Shown piece after piece: positions 30,519 through 40,466 of a stretch of DNA of 64,000 bases; positions within the stretch are counted from its first letter, which is position 1; each line of letters opens with the position of its first letter. The stretch is from Burkholderiales bacterium (lineage in GTDB: Bacteria; Pseudomonadota; Gammaproteobacteria; Burkholderiales; SG8-41). Under the pieces are notes generated by a model, which worked only from the letters and a program-made list of their open reading frames with translations, did not search any database and was not told the DNA's origin. A program made the translations under genes and the position numbers. The DNA lies in NCBI GenBank assembly GCA_019751125.1, contig JAIENU010000011.1, positions 291 through 64,290 on the forward strand, given 5' to 3'.

Positions 30519-33026
30519 ATGCCGTTAACTCTGCCTCAGCTCGAACGCCATCTTTTCAAGGCCGCTGACATATTGCGCGGCAAGATGGATGCCTCGGAGT
30601 TCAAGGAATACATCTTCGGGATGCTGTTCCTGAAGCGTTGTTCGGATGTCTATGAGCAACGGCGAGAAGAAATCATCAAGCAGGAGATGGATGCAGGCAA
30701 GAGCAAGGCGGAAGCCGAGCAGTCCGCCGAGAATCCGCGTTTTTACAAGATCGACGGTTATTTCTGGATGCCGGAGCGATCGCGTTACAAATATCTGCTG
30801 AACGAAGCGCACCAGAACGTTGGCGACACGCTGAACAAGGCGTTGGCCGGCGTCGAGTCATCCAACCTGAGCATGTCGGATGTGCTGGCACATATCGACT
30901 TCACCCGCCGCGTCGGGCAAAGCAAGATACCGGACATCAAGCTGCGCCAGCTCATCACCCATTTTGCGACTTACCGGCTGCGCAATGAGGACTTCGAGTT
31001 CCCGGACCTGCTGGGTGCGGCCTACGAATACCTGATTGGTGAATTTGCCGACTCCGCCGGCAAAAAGGGCGGTGAGTTCTACACGCCTCGATCGGTGGTG
31101 CGCATGATGGTGCGTTTACTCAAGCCCGAGCAGCAGCACGATATTTACGATCCCTGCTGCGGTTCCGGCGGCATGCTGATCGCAGCTAAGGAATTCATCG
31201 ACGAGCATGGCGGCACCGGACGCAATGCCAAGCTGTTCGGGCAGGAATTCAACGGAACCGTGTGGTCCATCGCCAAGATGAACATGTTGCTGCACGGCAT
31301 CAGCAGCGCCAGCCTGGAGAACGAGGATACGCTGGCCGATCCGCGCCACGTCGAAGGTGGTGAACTCAAACGCTTTGACCGCGTGCTGACCAATCCGCCG
31401 TTTTCCATCAACTGGGGCAACACTGAAAAGAACAACGACGGTACGCCGGCATGGGCGCCGAAGTTCCCGGAGCGTTTCAAATACGGCCAGGTGCCGCTGG
31501 GCGCCAAGAAAGCCGACCTCATGTTTCTGCAACACATGCTGGCGGTCACGCGAGATGGCGGCATGGTGGCGACAGTCATGCCGCACGGTGTGCTGTTCCG
31601 CGGCGGCGAGGAGCGCACCATCCGTGCCGGCATCATCGACGCCGACCTGCTGGAGGCCGTGATCGGCGTCGCGCCGAATCTGTTTTACGGCACCGGCATC
31701 CCCGCTTGCATCCTCGTGCTGCGTCAGCAGGTGCAGCACGGCGCCAACCGCGTCAGCGGCAAACCCGCTGCACGGCAGGGCAAGGTTCTGTTCATCAATG
31801 CGGACCGCGAATATTTCGAGGGCCGGGCGCAGAACTACCTGCTGCCCGAGCACATCGAGAAAATCGTCACTACCTTCGACGAATTCCGGGCGGTGCCCGG
31901 CTTTTCGGCCATTGTGGATCTTGCCAAGCTCAAGGCCAACGACTACAACCTCAACATCCGCCGCTATGCCGACAATGCCCCGCCGCCGGAGCCGCACGAC
32001 GTGCGGGCTCATCTGGTCGGCGGCGTGCCCAAGGCCGAAGTCGAGGCGAAAGCAGTGCTGTTCAAGGCGCACGGTCTCAACCCGCCGGACCTGTTCGTCG
32101 AGCGCGATACCAAGTACTTTGATTTTGCCCCTGCATTGCAGCAGCGCCAGCACCTCAAGCCCGCCATCGAAACCAACGCCGGGCTGGTGGCGAAAGAGGC
32201 GGCGATCCGGGACGCCTTCGAGCAGTGGTGGCAGGCGCACAGCGCCCGCATCACCGCGCTGTCCGGGCAGACCGACAACGTGGCGGGGCTCGTCGCCCTG
32301 CGCAACGAACTGCTGGCCAGTTTCAGTGAGACACTGGAAGCCGTCGGCATGCTCGATCCCATCCAGGTGCGCGGCATCGTTGCAGGTTTCTGGTATCAGA
32401 CCAAATACGAATTCTTGACCCTGATGGCGCGCGGCGCAAAAGGCGTGGCCGATGCCTGGCGCACCAGCATCGTCACCGCGCTGGAGGACAGAGCCAGCAA
32501 GGAAAGCCCGCTGGAGCACAAGCTGGTCAAGTTTCTGATGGGGGATTTTGTCGAGGTCATCAACGAACTGGAGGCGAAAAAGGCGGAACTCGACAGCCAG
32601 ATCAAGGCCGCCAGCCCGAAGGGCGACGATGAGGACAGCGGTGAGGGGGAGGGGGAGGGGGAGGGGGGCGCGGAAGAAGGGGATGACGACAACGTGGTGG
32701 ACGAGGCGCAGCTCAAAGCCTGGAAGAAGGAGCTGACCGCAGTCAAAAAACAGCTCAAGGCCAAGATGGACAGTTTCTCGGAGCATCTCAACCGCGAGGT
32801 CGATGGGCTCACGCCCGAAGCTGCCGCCGAATTGCTGCTCACTATCCTGCACAACGACATGCGGGCCATACTGGAACGCTATATCGCCGCACAGCGCAAA
32901 GACATTGTCGCGGCCTTCGAGAACTGGTGGGACAAATATCGAGTGACGTTGGCCGAGATTGAGGGTGAGCGGGATGCGGCGGCGCAGGCGCTGCAAGGGT
33001 TCTTGAAAGGGTTGAGGTATGTCTGA
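30519..33026 (+). CDS. hsdM: Type I restriction-modification system methyltransferase subunit M (long form, 835 aa)
   Basis: HsdM_N-like start [36 protein letters not shown] motif [10 protein letters not shown] and catalytic NPPF. A C-terminal extension of about 330 aa includes the acidic low-complexity tract [23 protein letters not shown]. Confidence 0.95.
32645..32668 (+). repeat. G5-A-G5-A-G5-A-G6 tract, (GAGGGG)n hexanucleotide repeat and canonical G-quadruplex motif inside hsdM
   Basis: Read directly: ggggg a ggggg a ggggg a gggggg on the coding strand. It is in frame and encodes the (EG)n part of the acidic linker. Confidence 0.9.
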
Positions 33027-34344
33027 GCGTTGGCAAACCGACCGCCTCGGTAAGTATTGCTACATCAAAGCGCGGATCGGATGGCGCGGACTTTCGGCGT
33101 CTGAATACACAGAGTCAGGGCCCTTCTTGATCGCAGGAAAGCATATCGAAAGTGGCGTGATTGACTGGAACGCTTGTGATCATATCTCTGAATTCCGGTA
33201 TCGCGAGTCTTCGGAAATTGCGCTCGCGGAGGGCGATGTAATCATCACAAAAGATGGCACCATTGGGCGTGTTGCTCGAATTGATTGCCTTCCTGGAAAA
33301 GCGACGATTAATGGAACGATGATGCTCATTCGACCTGAGCGGGGCATCCATTATGGTTACCTTTATCATGTTCTGAATGGCGCTGAATTCAAGAAACTAA
33401 TCGAGGACAAGGTGTCTGGGAGCTCGATTCCGCACATCTTTCAGCGGGACATGGTTGCCTTGCCAATCTCGTTTCCGCCAATTGAACATCAGGCGAAGTT
33501 GGCCCAAGTTCTCGATACCCTCGACACCGCCATCCACGAAACCGAGGCGATCATCGCCAAGCTCAAGGCCGTCAAGCAGGGGCTGCTGCAAAACCTGCTG
33601 ACGCGCGGCATCGACGCCAACGGCGAATTGCGCCCGCCCCAATCCGAAGCGCCGCAACTCTACAAGGAATCGCCTTTGGGGTGGATACCGAAGGAGTGGG
33701 ATTTTTCGTCTTTAACCAGCCTAGGAACTGATGGATTAAATAACGGTGTGTTCAAAGAACCTCGGCGTGTTGGTTCCGGTATTGCATTGGTCAACGTTGC
33801 TGACCTATATAGGGGCGATAGTGTCAGCTTGGATGATTGTGAACGCTTCGCCGCCACAGATGCAGAGCGCTCGCGTTACTCGGCAAGGCAGGGTGATATT
33901 TTCTTCACGCGTAGTTCGTTGAAGCTGGAGGGAATAGCTCAGACAAGTTTTCTAGCGGTCGAAACTGACTCGGCAGTCTTCGAGTGCCACGTCATGCGCC
34001 TTCGCCCAAACAGAGTAAAAGTGGTGCCACGCTTTCTCAAAGAATGGTGCGTTGGTATCCATGCGAGAAAGCACTTCATGGCCCAGGCGAAGCAAGTAAC
34101 TATGACAACGATTTCCCAAGATGGAATTGCTAGCCTTGACTGCCCAAGGCCGCCGCTTAAGGAGCAGCTCGAAGCGGTGCGCAGAATGGAGTCGGTCGAT
34201 AGTAGGCTAAACGCGGAGGTGTTGACCGCGAAGAAGTTGAGTGCGGAGAAGCGGGCGTTAATGGATGATCTACTTACTGGCCGCGTCCGCGTCACTCCTC
34301 TGCTGGCGCAGGCTGCTCGATCCGGGGAAACAGCGAGCGCCTGA
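33019..34344 (+). CDS. hsdS: Type I restriction-modification system specificity subunit S
   Basis: 441 aa. Two lower-GC target-recognition regions are separated by conserved helical spacers ([22 protein letters not shown]; [21 protein letters not shown]). 8-nt overlap with hsdM and 1-nt overlap with hsdR. Confidence 0.9.
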
Positions 34345-37300
34345 TGGGCTGGGAACTCGAAGACGTTGAAAAGCCCTTCATCGCACAATTGCACATGATG
34401 GGCTGGACGCATGTCGAGGGCGACATCGACGATCCGGCGGTCACATCCCGTTCGAGTTTTTCTGAAGTCATCCAGGAGCCGGTGCTGCGCGAGCGGCTGC
34501 GTGCGCTGAACCCTGGACCGGACGGCAAACCCTGGCTCGACGATGCTCGCCTCTCGGAAGCCATTTCCGCGCTCACCCGGCTGGGCCGCCACAAGCTGAT
34601 GGAGGCCAACGAAAAGGCCACGGAGCTGCTGGTGAAGGGCATCACGGTCGAGGGCCTGCCGGGCTGGGATGGCGGGCGCGGGCAGACCATCCGCTACATT
34701 GACTGGGATCATCCTGAAAGCAACCGCTACACAGTGGTCAACCAGTACCGGGTGGATTGCCTACCGGGATTCAATAGTGCCAAGCAGTTCATCGTGCCCG
34801 ATCTGGTGCTGCTGGTGAACGGCATCCCGCTGGTGGTGGTGGAGTGCAAAAGCCCGTCCATCCCGGAGCCACTGGCGGATGCGGTGGATCAACTGCGTCG
34901 CTACAGCAACCAGCGCAAGGCGGCCTTCGAGGTCGAGGACAACGAAGGCAACGAGCCGTTATTTGCCACCAACCAGTTGCTGATTGCCACCAGCTACGAC
35001 GAGGCGCGCGTGGGCTGCGTGGGTGCGGCGTTCGAGCATTACGCGCAGTGGAAGACGGTAGCCGGGGTGGATGGTGCGGGCGCGGAGTCCGAGGTGGCGC
35101 AGGCACTGGGAAGGGACGGCCTGTCGGAGCAGGAGCGGCTGATTGCTGGGATGCTGAGGCCTTCACAACTACTTGATTTAATTAAATATTTTGTCTTGTT
35201 CCTGCAGAAAGACGGGCAAGCCATCAAGACGGTGTGCCGTTACCAGCAATACCGGGCGGTGAACCGGGCGATTGAACGGCTGAAAACCGGCAAGACCCGC
35301 GCGCAGCACGGCGAGCACGACGAGCGCGGCGGCATCATCTGGCACACCCAGGGTTCGGGTAAGTCGCTGACCATGGTATTTCTGGTGCGCAAGATGCGCG
35401 CCGATCCGCAGCTGCGGCGCTTCAAGGTGATCGTGGTCACCGACCGCAAGGACCTGCAGCGCCAGTTGTCGGTGACGGCCACGCTGACCGGCGAGACGGT
35501 GGAAGTGGCCGACAGCAGCCGTGGTATTCGCGTGCTGGCGCGGCAGCAACGGCCGGGGCTGGTGTTCGCGACGATCCAGAAATACCGCGATACCGATACT
35601 GCGGCTGAGGCAGCACCGGCAGCGGAGGGGCAGAAGAAACTCCTCAAAGCCGCCGAACCCGCCAAGCCGTACAAGGCGGGCGAGCTCTACGAGGTGCTCA
35701 ACGATTCCGAGGATATCCTCGTGCTGGTGGACGAGGCGCACCGCACGCAGGCGGGCGATCTGCACGCGAGTCTGCTTGCCGGATTACCTAACTGCGCCCG
35801 TATCGGCTTTACTGGCACGCCGATCATCATGGGCGAGAAAAAGCGTACCCATGAGATTTTCGGGGAGTTCATCGACCGCTACACCATCCGCCAGTCGGAG
35901 GAGGACGGCGCGACGGTGCCAGTACTCTACGAGGGGCGCACGGCGCACGGCGCGGTCAAGGACGGCGGCAGCCTCGACGAGCTGTTCGAGGACCTGTTCC
36001 GCCAGCACAGTGCCGAGGAACTGGAGGCGATCCGCAAAAAATACGCAACCAAGGGCCATATTTTCGATGCGCCGGCGCTGATTGCGGATAAGGCACGCGA
36101 CATCTTGCGCCATTATGTGACCAACATCCTGCCCAATGGCTACAAGGCGCAGGTGGTGGCGTATAGCCGGCTGGCGGCGATACGCTATTTCGAGTCGCTG
36201 CTGGCTGCGCGCGACGAACTGCTGGCGGAAGCCGAGGCCCTGACGCCTGCGGACAAGATGCTCGACGACGAGGCGCTGTGCCAGCGCCCGCCCAAAGTGC
36301 AGGCGGTGATCCAGGCCTGGCGCTACCGGGATACGCTGGCGAAGATCCAGTTCGCGCCGATCATCTCGGGTAGTAACAACGATGATCCGGCGTGGAAACC
36401 GTGGACGGACGGCCACGCACAAGAACAACTGATCAAGCGCTTCAAGAAGCCACTGTCGCATGCGCAGCCTGATAAAAGCGATCCACTGGCATTCCTGGTG
36501 GTGAAGTCGATGCTGCTGACGGGTTTTGATGCACCGATTGCCGGCGTGATGTACCTCGATCGGCCGATCCGTGAGGCGGAGCTGCTGCAGGCTATCGCGC
36601 GGGTGAACCGCACGGGCTACGGCAAACGCTGCGGCATCGTGGTGGATTATTACGGAGTGGCGCAGCACCTCAAGGAGGCGCTGTCTGCCTATGCGGACGA
36701 GGATGTCGAGGGCGCGCTGGCCAGCCTGAAGGACGAGATTCCGGTGTTGCGTGACCGGCATCTGCGGGTGGTGGATCTGTTCCGGCGTTCGGGGATCGAC
36801 AGCCTGCAGGATACCGAGGCCTGTGTGGAGCTGCTGGGCAATGAAAAGCTGCGTGCCGAGTTTTCGGTCAAGCTGAAGGCATTTTTGGCATCACTGGATA
36901 CGGTGTTGCCGCGTCCCGAAGGGCTGCCGTTTTCTGGCGATGCCAAACGGCTGGCCTATATCTATGCTCGAGCGCGGAACCGTTACAAGGATACGCCGGT
37001 GCTGGGCAAGGATGTTGGTGCCAAGGTGCGCAAGCTAATCGACGACCATGTGATTTCTCTGGGCGTTGATCCCAAGATTCCGCCCATTCAGCTGATGGAT
37101 GCCGATTTTGATGAGCATTTGGGGCGGTCAGCCAACAATCGCGCCAAGGCTTCGGAGATGGAACACGCAATCCGCGCACATATCCGCAAGCATGTGGACG
37201 AGGACCCGGTGCTGTATCGCAAGCTGTCGGAGCGCCTGAACGACATCCTGCGTTCGATGGACGAGCAATGGGATGATGTGATCGCGCAGTTGCAGCAGTT

Positions 37301-37670
37301 GATTGACGAACTGCGTTCCGGACAAGTCGGCGACGGGTCTGCGCCGCAGGATTTGCCCGGACACTGCGCGCCGTTTTTGAGGACGGTGCTGGATGTGACC
37401 CATGCGGGCGGCAAACCCTCGCCGCAGGAGTTGTTGCACTTGAAAGATGTCACTATGGAACTGGTCGATCTGCTGGTTCAGGAATTGCAGGGCAATCCCG
37501 ATATCTGGAAACCCTACAAGCGCGCCGATCAGGAAAATCTCAATGGCCGTCTGTTTGATTACCTGATGCGCCTGCGGCCTCCGCTGGTGGATGCCGACAA
37601 AGCGGGCCAGTTGGCGGATCGGCTGATTGATCAGGCGCGTGCCAATCACGAGATGCTGGTGAACGTATGA
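34344..37670 (+). CDS. hsdR: Type I restriction endonuclease subunit R
   Basis: 1108 aa. N-terminal nuclease region (PDLVLLVNGIPLVVVECKSP, a PD-ExK motif) and SF2 helicase motifs (HTQGSGKSLTM, LVLVDEAHRTQ, FTGTP, QAIARVNR). Confidence 0.95.
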   Translation: MGWELEDVEKPFIAQLHMMGWTHVEGDIDDPAVTSRSSFSEVIQEPVLRERLRALNPGPDGKPWLDDARLSEAISALTRLGRHKLMEANEKATELLVKGITVEGLPGWDGGRGQTIRYIDWDHPESNRYTVVNQYRVDCLPGFNSAKQFIVPDLVLLVNGIPLVVVECKSPSIPEPLADAVDQLRRYSNQRKAAFEVEDNEGNEPLFATNQLLIATSYDEARVGCVGAAFEHYAQWKTVAGVDGAGAESEVAQALGRDGLSEQERLIAGMLRPSQLLDLIKYFVLFLQKDGQAIKTVCRYQQYRAVNRAIERLKTGKTRAQHGEHDERGGIIWHTQGSGKSLTMVFLVRKMRADPQLRRFKVIVVTDRKDLQRQLSVTATLTGETVEVADSSRGIRVLARQQRPGLVFATIQKYRDTDTAAEAAPAAEGQKKLLKAAEPAKPYKAGELYEVLNDSEDILVLVDEAHRTQAGDLHASLLAGLPNCARIGFTGTPIIMGEKKRTHEIFGEFIDRYTIRQSEEDGATVPVLYEGRTAHGAVKDGGSLDELFEDLFRQHSAEELEAIRKKYATKGHIFDAPALIADKARDILRHYVTNILPNGYKAQVVAYSRLAAIRYFESLLAARDELLAEAEALTPADKMLDDEALCQRPPKVQAVIQAWRYRDTLAKIQFAPIISGSNNDDPAWKPWTDGHAQEQLIKRFKKPLSHAQPDKSDPLAFLVVKSMLLTGFDAPIAGVMYLDRPIREAELLQAIARVNRTGYGKRCGIVVDYYGVAQHLKEALSAYADEDVEGALASLKDEIPVLRDRHLRVVDLFRRSGIDSLQDTEACVELLGNEKLRAEFSVKLKAFLASLDTVLPRPEGLPFSGDAKRLAYIYARARNRYKDTPVLGKDVGAKVRKLIDDHVISLGVDPKIPPIQLMDADFDEHLGRSANNRAKASEMEHAIRAHIRKHVDEDPVLYRKLSERLNDILRSMDEQWDDVIAQLQQLIDELRSGQVGDGSAPQDLPGHCAPFLRTVLDVTHAGGKPSPQELLHLKDVTMELVDLLVQELQGNPDIWKPYKRADQENLNGRLFDYLMRLRPPLVDADKAGQLADRLIDQARANHEMLVNV

Positions 37671-38404
37671 CGGGTCAAGTAGCGGCGGCTACCGTCGATG
37701 CTCGTGCGAAGCCTGGACTGGTGGTTGATGATATTTCGTTAAAACTGATTCGCAGTCCGCGACGCAAGACGATGCAAATTACTGTTGAGCGAAACGGTGA
37801 GCTGTCGATCTCCGCGCCGCCCGGTGTTCACCTCGACAAACTCCGGCAATTCGTGCGCGAGAAGCGATTCTGGATTTACACCAAGCTGGCGGAGAAAGAG
37901 CGTCTGCGCCGTGCGATACCTCGCAAGGAATTTATTGATGGCGAGGGGTTTTTATTCCTGGGCCGCAGCTATCGGCTGAAGCTGGTGGGCAAGCAGGAAC
38001 TGCCGTTGAAGTTGCTGAACGGTCGATTTTTGCTACGCAGGGATTCTGTGTCCGATGCACGCGCGCATTTCGTGCGTTGGTACAGCAACCGCGCGAAGCG
38101 CTGGCTCAGTGATCGTGTCGATGCATATTCAGGGCGCATGTCGGTCGAGCCTTCTGGTGTCAGGGTGCAGGATCTGTCCTATCGCTGGGGATCGTGCGGT
38201 AAAGATAAGTCATTGTTTTTTAATTGGAAAACGATACTCCTTCCTCCGCGCGTTGCGGAGTATGTGGTGGTGCATGAACTGGCGCATTTACACGAGCCGC
38301 ACCATACGCCTGAGTTCTGGTTGCACCTTGAAAGAGCAATGCCGGATTTCATGCAGCGCAAGGTTTGGTTGGCGGAGCATGGGGTTGATGTAGAGGGAAT
38401 TTAA
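37667..38404 (+). CDS. DUF45/YgjP-like (M48-related, WLM/SprT-like) zinc metallopeptidase
   Basis: 245 aa. HEXXH motif in VVVHELAHLHEPHHTPEFW. ATGA translational coupling to hsdR. Confidence 0.8.
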   Translation: MTGQVAAATVDARAKPGLVVDDISLKLIRSPRRKTMQITVERNGELSISAPPGVHLDKLRQFVREKRFWIYTKLAEKERLRRAIPRKEFIDGEGFLFLGRSYRLKLVGKQELPLKLLNGRFLLRRDSVSDARAHFVRWYSNRAKRWLSDRVDAYSGRMSVEPSGVRVQDLSYRWGSCGKDKSLFFNWKTILLPPRVAEYVVVHELAHLHEPHHTPEFWLHLERAMPDFMQRKVWLAEHGVDVEGI

Positions 38405-38422
38405 GTCGATTGACATTTATGT

Positions 38423-38439
38423 TTGGCATTTGATGCCAA
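38423..38439. promoter_or_regulatory. Palindrome TTGGCAT-ttg-ATGCCAA upstream of the AT-rich operon, with a consensus TTGACA at 38410-38415
   Basis: Read directly from the sequence. I found no convincing -10 hexamer at correct spacing, so a promoter or operator role is speculative. Confidence 0.3.
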
Positions 38440-38516
38440 TCACGGACGTTTCCGGGTGGCTACTTGATTAAGAGCCTTGTATTCAAGTGATGTGTGCTTG
38501 GGCTTGAGGGGGGCGG

Positions 38517-39395
38517 ATGCGATTTTGGTTAGTTAAAGATGATGCGCCAAGTGTCTCGTTTGTTAGGGGCCAGGAAGTTATTACGGTGCATATGAAGCGA
38601 AAGCTCGGCATGGTTAAGGGTGATCGTTTGCTGGTTCTATCAGCAGTAAACGAGAAATACCAATTTGCTGAGACTGCGAAGATAGAGAGCGTTTTTTTTG
38701 AAAATTTAGAAGATGATGGAGTAATTTCAATAATAGGTCTGTCTGAAACAAAAAAGCTGGATGATTTATTGCTCGATGACATGCTTTATAGCCTCACCTT
38801 TGTTTGGAACACTCAATTGCCGGCGCGGCATTTTCGTCGTGGTGTGCGTTTGGTTCCTGAGGCGGACTTTAATGCGATCGTCAATGGCTCAGTTTTCTTG
38901 TCGCGATCAGCTTACTTCACAATCTTAGGCGCATTGCCCGAAATGACCCGAGCTGAGTTTGAGGCAACTGAAATAGTCGGTGAGGCTCAATTTTTAGAGA
39001 CTGGCGGGATTAATGCGGAACATTTGCGTGCAAGAAGGAGGTATGAGTCGAAGCTAAGAAGGTTGCAGAAATATATTGATGAACAAATTATTTCAGTCGG
39101 GATTGAATTGGAAAAGTTGCAGCGGATTGCGGATGAATTGAAGGGCGATGGTTCATTGCAGTCGGTGCGACATAGTTTTTTTGATCAGGATTCAACTCAG
39201 AGGTATCGCTGGGATTATCAGATCGAAGCATTCAGCGGATTAATGAATAACCTTGAAGGAGTCCGGGTGCTTGATCGATTGCAGGAAATTTCAGAGAAGG
39301 GGGCGGTGTCGGAGGTCTTGAAATATCTGGAGAATGATGACGATGCAAGAGGCTCTGAAGAATCGTTTGAAAAAATGTTCGACGAGGTGCGGTAA
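38517..39395 (+). CDS. Hypothetical protein A (292 aa) of the AT-rich two-gene operon; family not recognised
   Basis: Strong SD gagggggg 3 nt before the ATG. The beta-rich N-terminal ~100 aa (MRFWLVKDD...VKGDRLLVLSAVNEKYQFAETAKIESVFF) is weakly reminiscent of PUA-like (ASCH/EVE) modules. The C-terminal half is helical and acidic. No P-loop. Confidence 0.7.
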   Translation: MRFWLVKDDAPSVSFVRGQEVITVHMKRKLGMVKGDRLLVLSAVNEKYQFAETAKIESVFFENLEDDGVISIIGLSETKKLDDLLLDDMLYSLTFVWNTQLPARHFRRGVRLVPEADFNAIVNGSVFLSRSAYFTILGALPEMTRAEFEATEIVGEAQFLETGGINAEHLRARRRYESKLRRLQKYIDEQIISVGIELEKLQRIADELKGDGSLQSVRHSFFDQDSTQRYRWDYQIEAFSGLMNNLEGVRVLDRLQEISEKGAVSEVLKYLENDDDARGSEESFEKMFDEVR

Positions 39396-40093
39396 TGTCG
39401 AAAAAAGAAATGCTCCGAGGAATTAAGGCCTATGCTGATGCTTTGGCAAGGGCGGGGAGGTGGGGTGGGCAATCAGCGAGGCCGGTTAATCTCAAGAATG
39501 ACTACTATGTTTATGAGCTCCTATGTTTTTTTAAAATTGCGTCTGAGGTAAAAAGTAAGTTTATTGTTGAATTGTCTGGCAATTATGAGAAAAAAATTGG
39601 TGGGGTTCGCGGAGGGGGTGGCTCCATCGAAATGCATGCGCTTTGGCCAATGGGGCCGGCAAATAAGTCTAACTTTTCTTTTTTTTGTTTGACTGAAAAG
39701 TCAGATCAAAATTTTATTTATCAGCTTTGTCCGGGCACTAATGTTGAAGATATGCATGGCAAATTAAGGGCTCCAGATATTAGTCTTCAAAAGGGTGATG
39801 CCCCAATGAATCCGACGTTTAACGATGTAATCGCTTGTTGGGATGCAAAGCATTCAATTCACGTAGGTAATACGTTACCTGATACCGCCGTTTCTGATTT
39901 TGCCTATACCGTTGCTCAATTTGGAAAGCCAGTGCCGCCTGCAAAGTGGACGTCTTTAGTTAAGCTCCCTGCGTTGCGTTGCTCGGGGCTGTTAACAAAT
40001 GGTGAGTGGTCGACTGAGCCTGATGCCGCCCTTGCTGCGGCTGGCATAGCGGAGACAAAAAATTTCCCCGATGAACCTTTAACTCGGCCTTAA
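39395..40093 (+). CDS. Hypothetical protein B (232 aa), putative PD-(D/E)xK-fold nuclease
   Basis: TAATG overlap with gene A. Candidate catalytic elements are E41 (YVYELLCFF), P127-D128 (LRAPDISL) and D150-A151-K152 (VIACWDAKH), with plausible spacing. No named family recognised. Confidence 0.65.
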   Translation: MSKKEMLRGIKAYADALARAGRWGGQSARPVNLKNDYYVYELLCFFKIASEVKSKFIVELSGNYEKKIGGVRGGGGSIEMHALWPMGPANKSNFSFFCLTEKSDQNFIYQLCPGTNVEDMHGKLRAPDISLQKGDAPMNPTFNDVIACWDAKHSIHVGNTLPDTAVSDFAYTVAQFGKPVPPAKWTSLVKLPALRCSGLLTNGEWSTEPDAALAAAGIAETKNFPDEPLTRP

Positions 40094-40169
40094 TCTTCAC
40101 TGCCATCAGGGCGCGACTGCGTCGCGCGGGTCAAAGGCGGACCGGTGGGTGACGCCTTCGGCTTACCCA

Positions 40170-40351
40170 CCCTACGAGCTGGATAACCTGGTGCGCATCG
40201 GCCAGTTGAAGGCCCAGCCGCGCACCGCCAGCGCAATCTGGCGGAATACGAGGGTTTTTGGCAGGTGGAAGAATCCGCCATCGCGGAACTTTCGGCGCTG
40301 GTGGAGTATCTGATTTCCGACGTGGACCGCTTGATCAAGGGCGTGAATTGA
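40170..40351 (+). pseudogene. Possible decayed gene remnant at the right edge of the defence island
   Basis: Two adjacent frames read PYELDNLVRIGQLKAQPRTAS... and ...AEYEGFWQVEESAIAELSALVEYLISDVDRLIKGVN-stop. There is no start codon and an apparent frameshift. Composition is high-GC, unlike the neighbouring cassette. Confidence 0.3.
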
Positions 40352-40466
40352 TCACGCCGGCGGGCATTTGTCTCAGGTGATCCAGTAAGCCCAGGCCAAG
40401 CTGCAGTAATATCCTGTCCCACACTATTCTGTGTTGAATAATTCGACTAAAAACTGAGGAGAAAAC

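Follow-up and report, generated by a model that had tools for sequence, protein, structure and literature searches.

What is the function of two overlapping genes of no recognised family that lie next to a type I restriction-modification (R-M) locus in a Burkholderiales bacterium? The genes, called here A and B, are found in a 64,000-nucleotide stretch of contig JAIENU010000011.1 (assembly GCA_019751125.1), and we refer to this whole stretch as the window. A preliminary description, made from the DNA letters alone, had suggested that A and B may be a two-component unit acquired separately from the R-M genes, in which a reader-like protein A would act together with a PD-(D/E)xK-like nuclease B. 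The sequence comparisons and structural models reported here support that interpretation in every part that computation could test. By analogy with known enzymes, we propose that A and B could constitute a modification-dependent (type IV-like) restriction system split over two proteins. We hold this to be the likeliest reading, and give it about an even chance of being correct.

A foreign cassette of two overlapping genes

The A-B cassette is a self-contained, horizontally mobile two-gene unit of foreign composition. The drop in guanine plus cytosine (GC) content that had been placed between about 38405 and about 40094 was found when it was quantified. Over 300-nucleotide intervals, GC falls from 0.54-0.58 to 0.42-0.47 across approximately 38350 to 40000, and is back at 0.54-0.61 from approximately 39850. 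The mean GC of the cassette is 0.445, whereas its 5-kb flanks have 0.590 (left) and 0.648 (right). Between 38350 and 39700 the coding strand has a positive GC skew of 0.2-0.4, against approximately 0.0-0.2 in the flanking genes, and this strong skew is a further sign of foreign origin. The pair is also AT-rich at other loci: in Burkholderia the GC content of A-B is 0.40-0.42 in flanks of 0.54-0.59, and A-B of locus L008 (a Logan assembly) is likewise AT-rich relative to its flanks. Direct repeats or target-site duplications flanking the cassette were looked for, and none was found.

According to the open reading frame (ORF) listing, A and B (292 and 232 amino acids) are the sole long same-strand ORFs inside 38517-40093. 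At their junction (gcggTAATGtcg) the stop codon TAA of A and the start codon ATG of B have one base in common (TAATG), as had been described. The overlap of the two frames suggests translational coupling, and therefore that both proteins are made together. The strong ribosome-binding site that had been assigned to A is also present (GAGGGGGG), a few bases 5' of its ATG.

The A-B pair is conserved across loci

In genomes and metagenomes that are unrelated to one another, homologs of A and B stay side by side with overlapping frames, and therefore sequence comparison indicates that both are real genes and not chance ORFs. At each of the 11 distinct loci open to evaluation (the window, L001, L003, L004, L006, L008, L009, L010, L011, L012 and L014), an A homolog lies directly 5' of B and either overlaps or abuts it. 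The pair was found in Burkholderia contaminans (L001/L002), B. pyrrocinia (L011), Burkholderia sp. AU31280 (L012/L013), JGI metagenomes (L003 and L010), ENA and JGI metagenomes (L006/L007, one locus type with two occurrences) and two Logan assemblies (L008 and L014). In L004 and L009 the A partner is a truncated fragment at the contig end, matching the conserved C-terminal tail of A with E = 1.6e-4 and 2.7e-4, respectively. L005 ends at a contig edge and was left out of the count.

The pairing holds down to 23-24% identity in B. The upstream genes of A type encode proteins of 279-312 amino acids; A matched upstream partners with BLASTP E-values of 2e-23 and 7e-32, and the distant L006 partner with 98.7% probability in hhalign. 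The identities of A and of B correlate across loci (r = 0.99 overall, r = 0.63 when the close Burkholderia pairs are left aside), and the divergence of A is always faster than that of B. No A-B fusion was found among the top 150 B relatives, all of which begin at the N-terminus of B. Judging from these sequences, A is an obligatory partner of B, and the idea of a two-component unit gains from this adjacency.

A degenerate DNA pattern (WDAK...VSDF...TEPD) gave no finds in genome and metagenome collections, though it matches the window and L001-L004, and a second pattern of fixed spacing yielded one further locus, L005. No B relatives were found by tblastn in plasmid and phage collections, which thus give no evidence of carriage on known plasmids or phages.

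Protein B is a predicted PD-(D/E)xK nuclease

The preliminary description could place neither protein in a family, and in agreement with this, neither A nor B has a significant match in Pfam, NCBIfam, PADLOC or PHROGs. The component models of PADLOC-DB v2.0.0 gave no match for A or for B even at E <= 1. B has nonetheless many relatives. A word-indexed search with B returned 9 clusters with 33-100% identity, and an exhaustive profile search returned 238 representative clusters (50% identity) at E <= 1e-3, 188 of which remain at E <= 1e-10. Nearly all of these relatives are single-domain proteins of approximately 220 amino acids.

Conservation was read from an alignment of 79 diverse members, in which E41, D128, K152 and N202 are invariant, and P85, K91, C112, G114, P127, P140, D150, A151, F169 and T201 each reach a conservation of 90% or more. 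The residues in which a PD-(D/E)xK active site had been recognised, that is, E41 in YVYELLCFF, P127-D128 in LRAPDISL and D150-A151-K152 in VIACWDAKH, are all present and are invariant or nearly so.

Further information about B was obtained from its AlphaFold2 model, which has a predicted local distance difference test (pLDDT) score of 81 and a predicted template-modelling (pTM) score of 0.83. The model places the same residues at the canonical secondary-structure positions: E41 is within helix 39-51, D128 opens strand 129-133, and D150 and K152 are within strand 145-152, followed by helix 163-175 and then by strand 198-201. As modelled, the elements follow the canonical order of restriction-endonuclease folds, except that extra sequence is inserted behind the first strand. 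Foldseek searches of the PDB gave weak matches (best E = 5e-3, template-modelling (TM) scores 0.2-0.36), and all interpretable neighbours are PD-(D/E)xK proteins: AF1548, NucC, DrdV, the R2 restriction-like endonuclease domain, TT1808, Bax1, AddAB and HamA. In a viral structure library, the matches of B were "restriction endonuclease" and "Mrr" models. The Pfam family PF04411 (PDDEXK_7) was matched weakly by 4 of the 79 members (best E = 0.0019). Sequence profiles of B found no solved relative in the PDB, where they returned only noise (pectate lyase, calcineurin B). Considering alignment and model together, we regard B as the very probable founder of a new family of active PD-(D/E)xK nucleases, and we propose E41, D128, D150 and K152 as its catalytic residues.

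B of the window also has a glycine-rich insertion, GGVRGGGGS (residues ~66-78; 39590-39628), with pLDDT below 50. It is missing from all close homologs.

Protein A carries a candidate reader domain

A word-indexed homolog search with A returned A alone. Its relatives were obtained via the genes neighbouring B homologs and by profile search, and the resulting A-family profile has 10 members. The N-terminal part shows the conserved motifs M-x-x-W, GD(R/K) and LxD..YSL.F....P..h.R...R....D(F/Y)..(I/L).

A loose likeness of this N-terminal part to PUA-like modules (ASCH/EVE) had been suggested, and three independent signals of weak to moderate strength point in that direction. When the A profile was compared with all PDB sequences, the best match was the UPF0310 protein MJECL36 (2p5d; E = 1.4e-3), with profile positions 1-137 aligned to chain residues 4-146, followed by PH1033 (E = 0.51). 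MJECL36 is a full-length match to Pfam EVE (PF01878; E = 1.4e-28). The second signal comes from the NCBIfam model PRK00809, which we take to represent the same archaeal UPF0310/EVE family as MJECL36. Three of the 10 A members match it, and the best of these matches (E = 1.2e-5) falls well short of the membership cut-off of the model. A of the window has a sub-threshold match to it at residues 85-123 (E = 0.0077). The third signal is structural. An AlphaFold2 model of A was built from a six-sequence alignment, and its top Foldseek matches are the EVE structures 5j3e (THYN1 with 5-methylcytosine (5mC) DNA), 2ar1, 2eve, 2g2x and 3eop, after which come ASCH, SRA and YTH domains. The model is poor (overall pLDDT 46, with six strands in residues 1-75 at pLDDT ~70), and therefore we take the fold matches as corroboration only. 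From profile and model evidence, the N-terminus of A is probably an EVE-like domain of the PUA superfamily, although a very divergent one. The aromatic residues W4, Y91 and F95 are conserved, and their placement in a pocket is putative.

The C-terminal half of A had been described as helical and acidic. Helices are indeed predicted, at low confidence, and the acidic tail is conserved as (S/x)E..FE..F, next to a second motif, F.(S/A)R(S/T)A(Y/F)F..L..LP. These approximately 165 residues have a match neither in family models nor in the PDB. We propose that the C-terminal half may be a linker or a regulatory, B-binding module.

The pair recurs in defence islands

A-B recurs in defence islands, independently of type I R-M. 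In Burkholderia its site is a defence hotspot near gyrB, in which strains differ in the R-M systems that they carry while A-B is constant (spans compared: L011 1-13400, L012 1-12500 and L014 1-12500). A type III R-M system (Mod/Res) with a UvrD/NERD helicase adjoins the pair in L001, L011 and L012, and a type I R-M system with an extra N6-methyltransferase and Mrr does so in L014. A SymE toxin gene is found 3' of A-B in L012 and L014. Outside the hotspot, a GmrSD-like HEC-05 protein is encoded near A-B in L004, and the neighbours in L003 are IetA, a MazG-PIN protein, HipA and an M78/HTH pair.

Type I genes adjoin A-B solely in the window and in L014. In the available sequence of L003, L004, L006, L008 and L010 there is no methyltransferase next to the pair, and across the compared loci none is conserved with it; the methyltransferases that do adjoin A-B are parts of complete type I or type III systems, which differ by locus. 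The claim of an acquisition separate from the R-M genes agrees with the foreign composition of the cassette and with this variety of neighbours (type III R-M, Mrr, GmrSD-like, IetA, toxins). The cassette does lie downstream of hsdR and of the DUF45 peptidase, as stated earlier. However, of the original title, "operon attached to the type I R-M locus", only the adjacency stands; A-B is a separate cassette adjacent to that locus and not attached to it.

Some of these loci contain other genes of possible interest. In L011 an insertion sequence (DDE_Tnp_1) separates res from A, and the place of SymE on the downstream side is taken by Tli4_C and PAAR genes. A 1515-amino-acid protein is encoded in L004 (1148-5695) between the B homolog and the HEC-05 gene; it has a faint HNH match at residues 1395-1425 and otherwise no family match, and it may be another uncharacterised defence protein. 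In L003 (2613-6231) a MazG-like/PIN7 protein is encoded immediately 5' of the A-B pair, and the IetA ATPase (PADLOC E = 2.7e-71) adjoins an unannotated 330-amino-acid gene that may encode a divergent IetS partner. Directly 3' of A-B, the low-GC metagenomic lineage of L006 and L007 encodes a DUF3800 protein (L006, 3886-4668; L007, 3139-3921), which matches Pfam with E = 1.4e-5 and PADLOC PDC-M04A weakly.

A proposed mechanism and its alternatives

In a split type IV-like system, A and B would be made together via translational coupling and would form a complex. A would use its EVE-like domain to detect modified bases in invading DNA, of which a flipped-out modified cytosine is the most plausible. 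The C-terminal helices of A would hold and restrain B, which would cut DNA after A engages the modified site. The coupling of a reader to a nuclease, a trait of type IV systems, is present here as genetic coupling of the two predicted modules, and the two proteins may also associate physically. Type IV systems likewise have no methyltransferase of their own, and none is conserved with A-B. We infer that A and B act as a complex, that modified DNA is the ligand, and that the outcome is restriction rather than abortive infection.

A precedent for such a mechanism is VcaM4I. The EVE domain of this enzyme flips 5mC or 5-hydroxymethylcytosine into a hydrophobic pocket (P24, W82, Y130), and the EVE domain together with a helical linker blocks the nuclease; deletion of both results in a toxic non-specific nuclease (PMC7897488). 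By analogy with this EVE-linker-HNH arrangement, the C-terminal half of A could have a regulatory role. EVE-PD(D/E)XK and EVE-HNH fusions form a recognised class of type IV enzymes, predicted or proven, and defence-type EVE domains are presented as fast-evolving and often seen by sensitive methods only (PMC7641849; PMC6765204).

Several observations weigh against a split type IV-like system. According to Lutz et al. (PMC6765204), PUA-nuclease type IV genes are rarely near methyltransferase genes, and A-B adjoins N6-methyladenine (m6A)-type R-M systems in two lineages; for the type IV reading to fit, A would have to leave the marks of its own host unread. EVE domains appear also in toxin-antitoxin and RNA-related contexts (PMC7641849), and PUA-like domains are able to sense free nucleotides (10.1101/2025.11.05.686725). 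The EVE assignment of A is remote and its model, as said, is poor. Pfam EVE (PF01878) matches none of the 10 A members at E <= 1, and hhalign of the A family against the single MJECL36 sequence gives a probability of 26% only, so we call the domain EVE-like and leave it outside the EVE family as curated. For B, the structural matches are weak (E of at least 5e-3, TM 0.2-0.36) and a solved relative was not found by sequence.

The main alternative is a nucleotide-sensing abortive nuclease, a possibility raised by the m6A-type methyltransferase systems that directly adjoin A-B: type I in the window, and type III or type I in Burkholderia. A would bind a free modified mononucleotide, for instance N6-methyl-deoxyadenosine monophosphate (m6dAMP) released from a methylated host chromosome degraded by a phage, and B, released or activated as an indiscriminate nuclease, would then kill the infected cell. 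Two recent preprints show that PUA-like domains sense m6dAMP in Metis (10.1101/2025.11.05.686725) and in PUA-Cal-HAD (10.64898/2026.01.15.699771). Defence of this kind relies on endogenous methylases, and the authors of these studies expect more types (10.1101/2025.11.05.686725; 10.64898/2026.01.15.699771). It is also consistent with such a role that B is a small nuclease without a DNA-recognition domain of its own. However, the Burkholderia adjacency is accounted for by a common integration hotspot with swapping R-M content, no methyltransferase adjoins the pair in the available sequence of the five loci named above, and A has its nearest structural matches among EVE domains that bind DNA. 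In addition, Pfam detects in A and B neither a counterpart of the MisB phosphatase, which guards Metis from self-activation, nor a calcineurin or HAD domain. We consider it unlikely that A-B is a nuclease branch of "danger-nucleotide" immunity, with an m6dAMP-like ligand or modified RNA and tied to the adjacent R-M methylase.

Two known systems were considered as possible identities of the pair and rejected. Metis is composed of MisA, with a PUA-like N-terminus and a calcineurin-like phosphoesterase, and either the HAD phosphatase MisB or the membrane protein MisC (10.1101/2025.11.05.686725); A and B match neither PF00149 of MisA nor PF13419 of MisB in Pfam, and the domain content differs. END nucleases, which combine a PLD nuclease with an inactive EndoIII domain, differ in domain content as well.

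A toxin-antitoxin or abortive pair that reads no modification appears rather improbable to us. B would be a toxic nuclease, and A an inhibitor released or degraded on infection, with a beta-rich N-terminus of some other role. This would agree with the tight overlap and the co-divergence of the two genes, with the toxin neighbours SymE and HipA at several loci, with the toxicity of VcaM4I once its EVE domain and linker are removed (PMC7897488), and with the occurrence of EVE domains in such modules (PMC7641849). However, A, with its 292 amino acids and its conserved reader-like domain, far exceeds the typical size of an antitoxin. Its conservation peaks at the EVE-like C-terminal motif and not at a short binding peptide, and a DNA-binding antitoxin fold was not detected in A by family and PDB searches.

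PD-(D/E)xK enzymes of defence islands act mostly on DNA, the neighbours of A-B are DNA-targeting R-M systems, and the best structural match of A is THYN1 on 5mC DNA; all this argues against an RNA-directed system, in which the EVE-like domain would read a modified base of tRNA or phage RNA and B would cleave RNA. EVE and PUA domains were first regarded as RNA binders (PMC6765204), slow-evolving EVE proteins are tied to modified tRNA or RNA (PMC6765204; PMC7641849), and RNA is the predicted target of some systems related to type IV (PMC11090510). Overall, we hold RNA cleavage by B to be quite improbable.

A role as accessory of the adjoining type I R-M system, which the position of the cassette directly after hsdR-YgjP on the same strand could suggest, or a non-defence role in housekeeping or in repair, where PD-(D/E)xK enzymes and base readers also work, is very improbable, given the patchy distribution of the pair, its absence among the matches in plasmid and phage collections, its location in a variable hotspot unlike that of housekeeping genes, its foreign composition and its own ribosome-binding site in the spacer. 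The accessory idea was dropped because linkage to hsdR, hsdM and hsdS is not conserved: at other loci the pair is found without type I genes alongside, next to type III, GmrSD-like or IetA genes or to nothing recognisable.

If the split type IV-like reading is true, a two-protein architecture, made of a reader with long regulatory helices and a detachable minimal nuclease, would join the modification-dependent restriction enzymes. Two "hypothetical" families would receive names and a function, among them B with its 238 clusters unseen by Pfam, NCBIfam, PADLOC and PHROGs. Readers of new specificity would be useful as epigenetic tools, and with the split design one could examine the way in which a nuclease on a second protein is licensed by its reader. 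The recurrence of the pair beside m6A-type R-M systems makes it, in turn, an inexpensive test case for whether Metis-like nucleotide sensing reaches nuclease effectors.

Neighbouring genes and features in the window

The coordinates of the cassette and its surroundings are collected in Table 1. The YgjP-like gene overlaps the stop codon of hsdR and is therefore translationally coupled to the type I restriction subunit. HsdM of the window is unusually long (835 amino acids) and matches the PADLOC model PDLC03031 end to end.

The spacer between the YgjP-like gene and A presumably holds a putative promoter or operator of the cassette. Its two inverted repeats could be the operator of the cassette, or the terminator of the R-M operon. 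A scan for consensus promoters and terminators gave nothing convincing in the spacer, with a score no better than that of shuffled sequence.

On the 3' side of B, a GC-rich non-coding or decayed stretch of approximately 370 bp precedes a TctC receptor gene. This stretch (40094-40466) has two short ORFs on the + strand in different frames, 40149-40313 (YELDNLVRIGQLKAQP) and 40265-40351 (AELSALVEYLISDVDRLIKGVN), and Pfam gave a match for neither. Together they resemble what is left of a gene that decayed by frameshift and that may have been the first neighbour of the R-M island.

Table 1. Features of the A-B cassette and of its surroundings, in positions of the window
Feature	Position	Strand	Description
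hsdM	30519-33026	+	type I R-M; Pfam and PADLOC matches; context only
hsdS	33019-34344	+	type I R-M; Pfam and PADLOC matches; context only
hsdR	34344-37670	+	type I R-M; Pfam and PADLOC matches; context only
YgjP-like (DUF45) metallopeptidase gene	37667-38404	+	overlap of 4 nt with hsdR stop codon
Spacer, YgjP-like gene to A	38405-38516	+	112 bp; composition switch starts here
Inverted repeat 1 in spacer	38420-38429/38433-38442		TGTTTGGCAT/ATGCCAATCA; 3-nt loop
Inverted repeat 2 in spacer	38462-38470/38480-38488		ACTTGATTA/TATTCAAGT; 9-nt loop
Gene A	38517-39395	+	292 amino acids; ATG start
A, N-terminal domain	38517-38891	+	~125 amino acids; beta-rich, EVE-like (PUA superfamily), putative modified-base reader
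A, C-terminal part	38892-39395	+	~165 amino acids; predicted long helices
Gene B	39395-40093	+	232 amino acids; ATG start

Comparison with known systems

A-B resembles most the single-chain EVE-PD(D/E)XK and EVE-HNH enzymes (for example VcaM4I and the TspA15I group), a class catalogued by Bell, Wolf & Koonin 2020 and by Lutz et al. 2019. By prediction, A-B shares with them an N-terminal EVE-type reader, a helical connector and a small nuclease; like them, it lacks a dedicated methyltransferase and carries a fast-evolving candidate reader in defence islands. A-B differs from these fusions in that reader and nuclease are on separate, translationally coupled polypeptides. In addition, A has diverged so far in its EVE-like domain that the Pfam EVE model does not recognise it, its helical region has approximately 165 amino acids with conserved motifs of its own, against a linker of approximately 30 amino acids in VcaM4I, and B comes from an unannotated PD-(D/E)xK family of 238 clusters that has no curated model.

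As in McrBC-type systems with an EVE-McrB reader and McrC, the predicted reader and the predicted PD-(D/E)xK nuclease are encoded by adjacent genes, and a few B relatives match weakly PDDEXK_7, a family found in McrC-like proteins. Unlike McrB, A has no GTPase/AAA+ motor; the Walker A motif is missing, as the preliminary description had pointed out, and there is no P-loop family match. Unlike McrC, B is a bare nuclease of approximately 220 amino acids without the McrB-binding N-terminal domain. MspJI, PvuRts1I and AbaSI combine a base-flipping reader of the PUA superfamily with a restriction-fold nuclease and have no ATP requirement, which we propose to be also the case of A-B. However, these enzymes are single polypeptides with SRA-like readers, and no sequence or profile similarity to A-B was detected.

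Metis and PUA-Cal-HAD are two-gene cassettes whose first protein opens with a PUA-like ligand-binding domain, as is predicted for A-B, and a functional dependence on host methylation is a possible further likeness. In contrast to both, the predicted effector of A-B is a nuclease and not a nicotinamide adenine dinucleotide (NAD+) diphosphatase or an enzyme that depletes deoxynucleoside triphosphates, A-B lacks a phosphatase partner, and it is unrelated to them in sequence.

In summary, A-B is not categorically new, because the logic of a reader plus a restriction-fold nuclease is already known. What is new is its layout, split over two coupled genes, the long run of conserved helices that the reader carries, an EVE-like domain of extreme divergence, and a predicted PD-(D/E)xK family without a curated model and missing from PADLOC v2.

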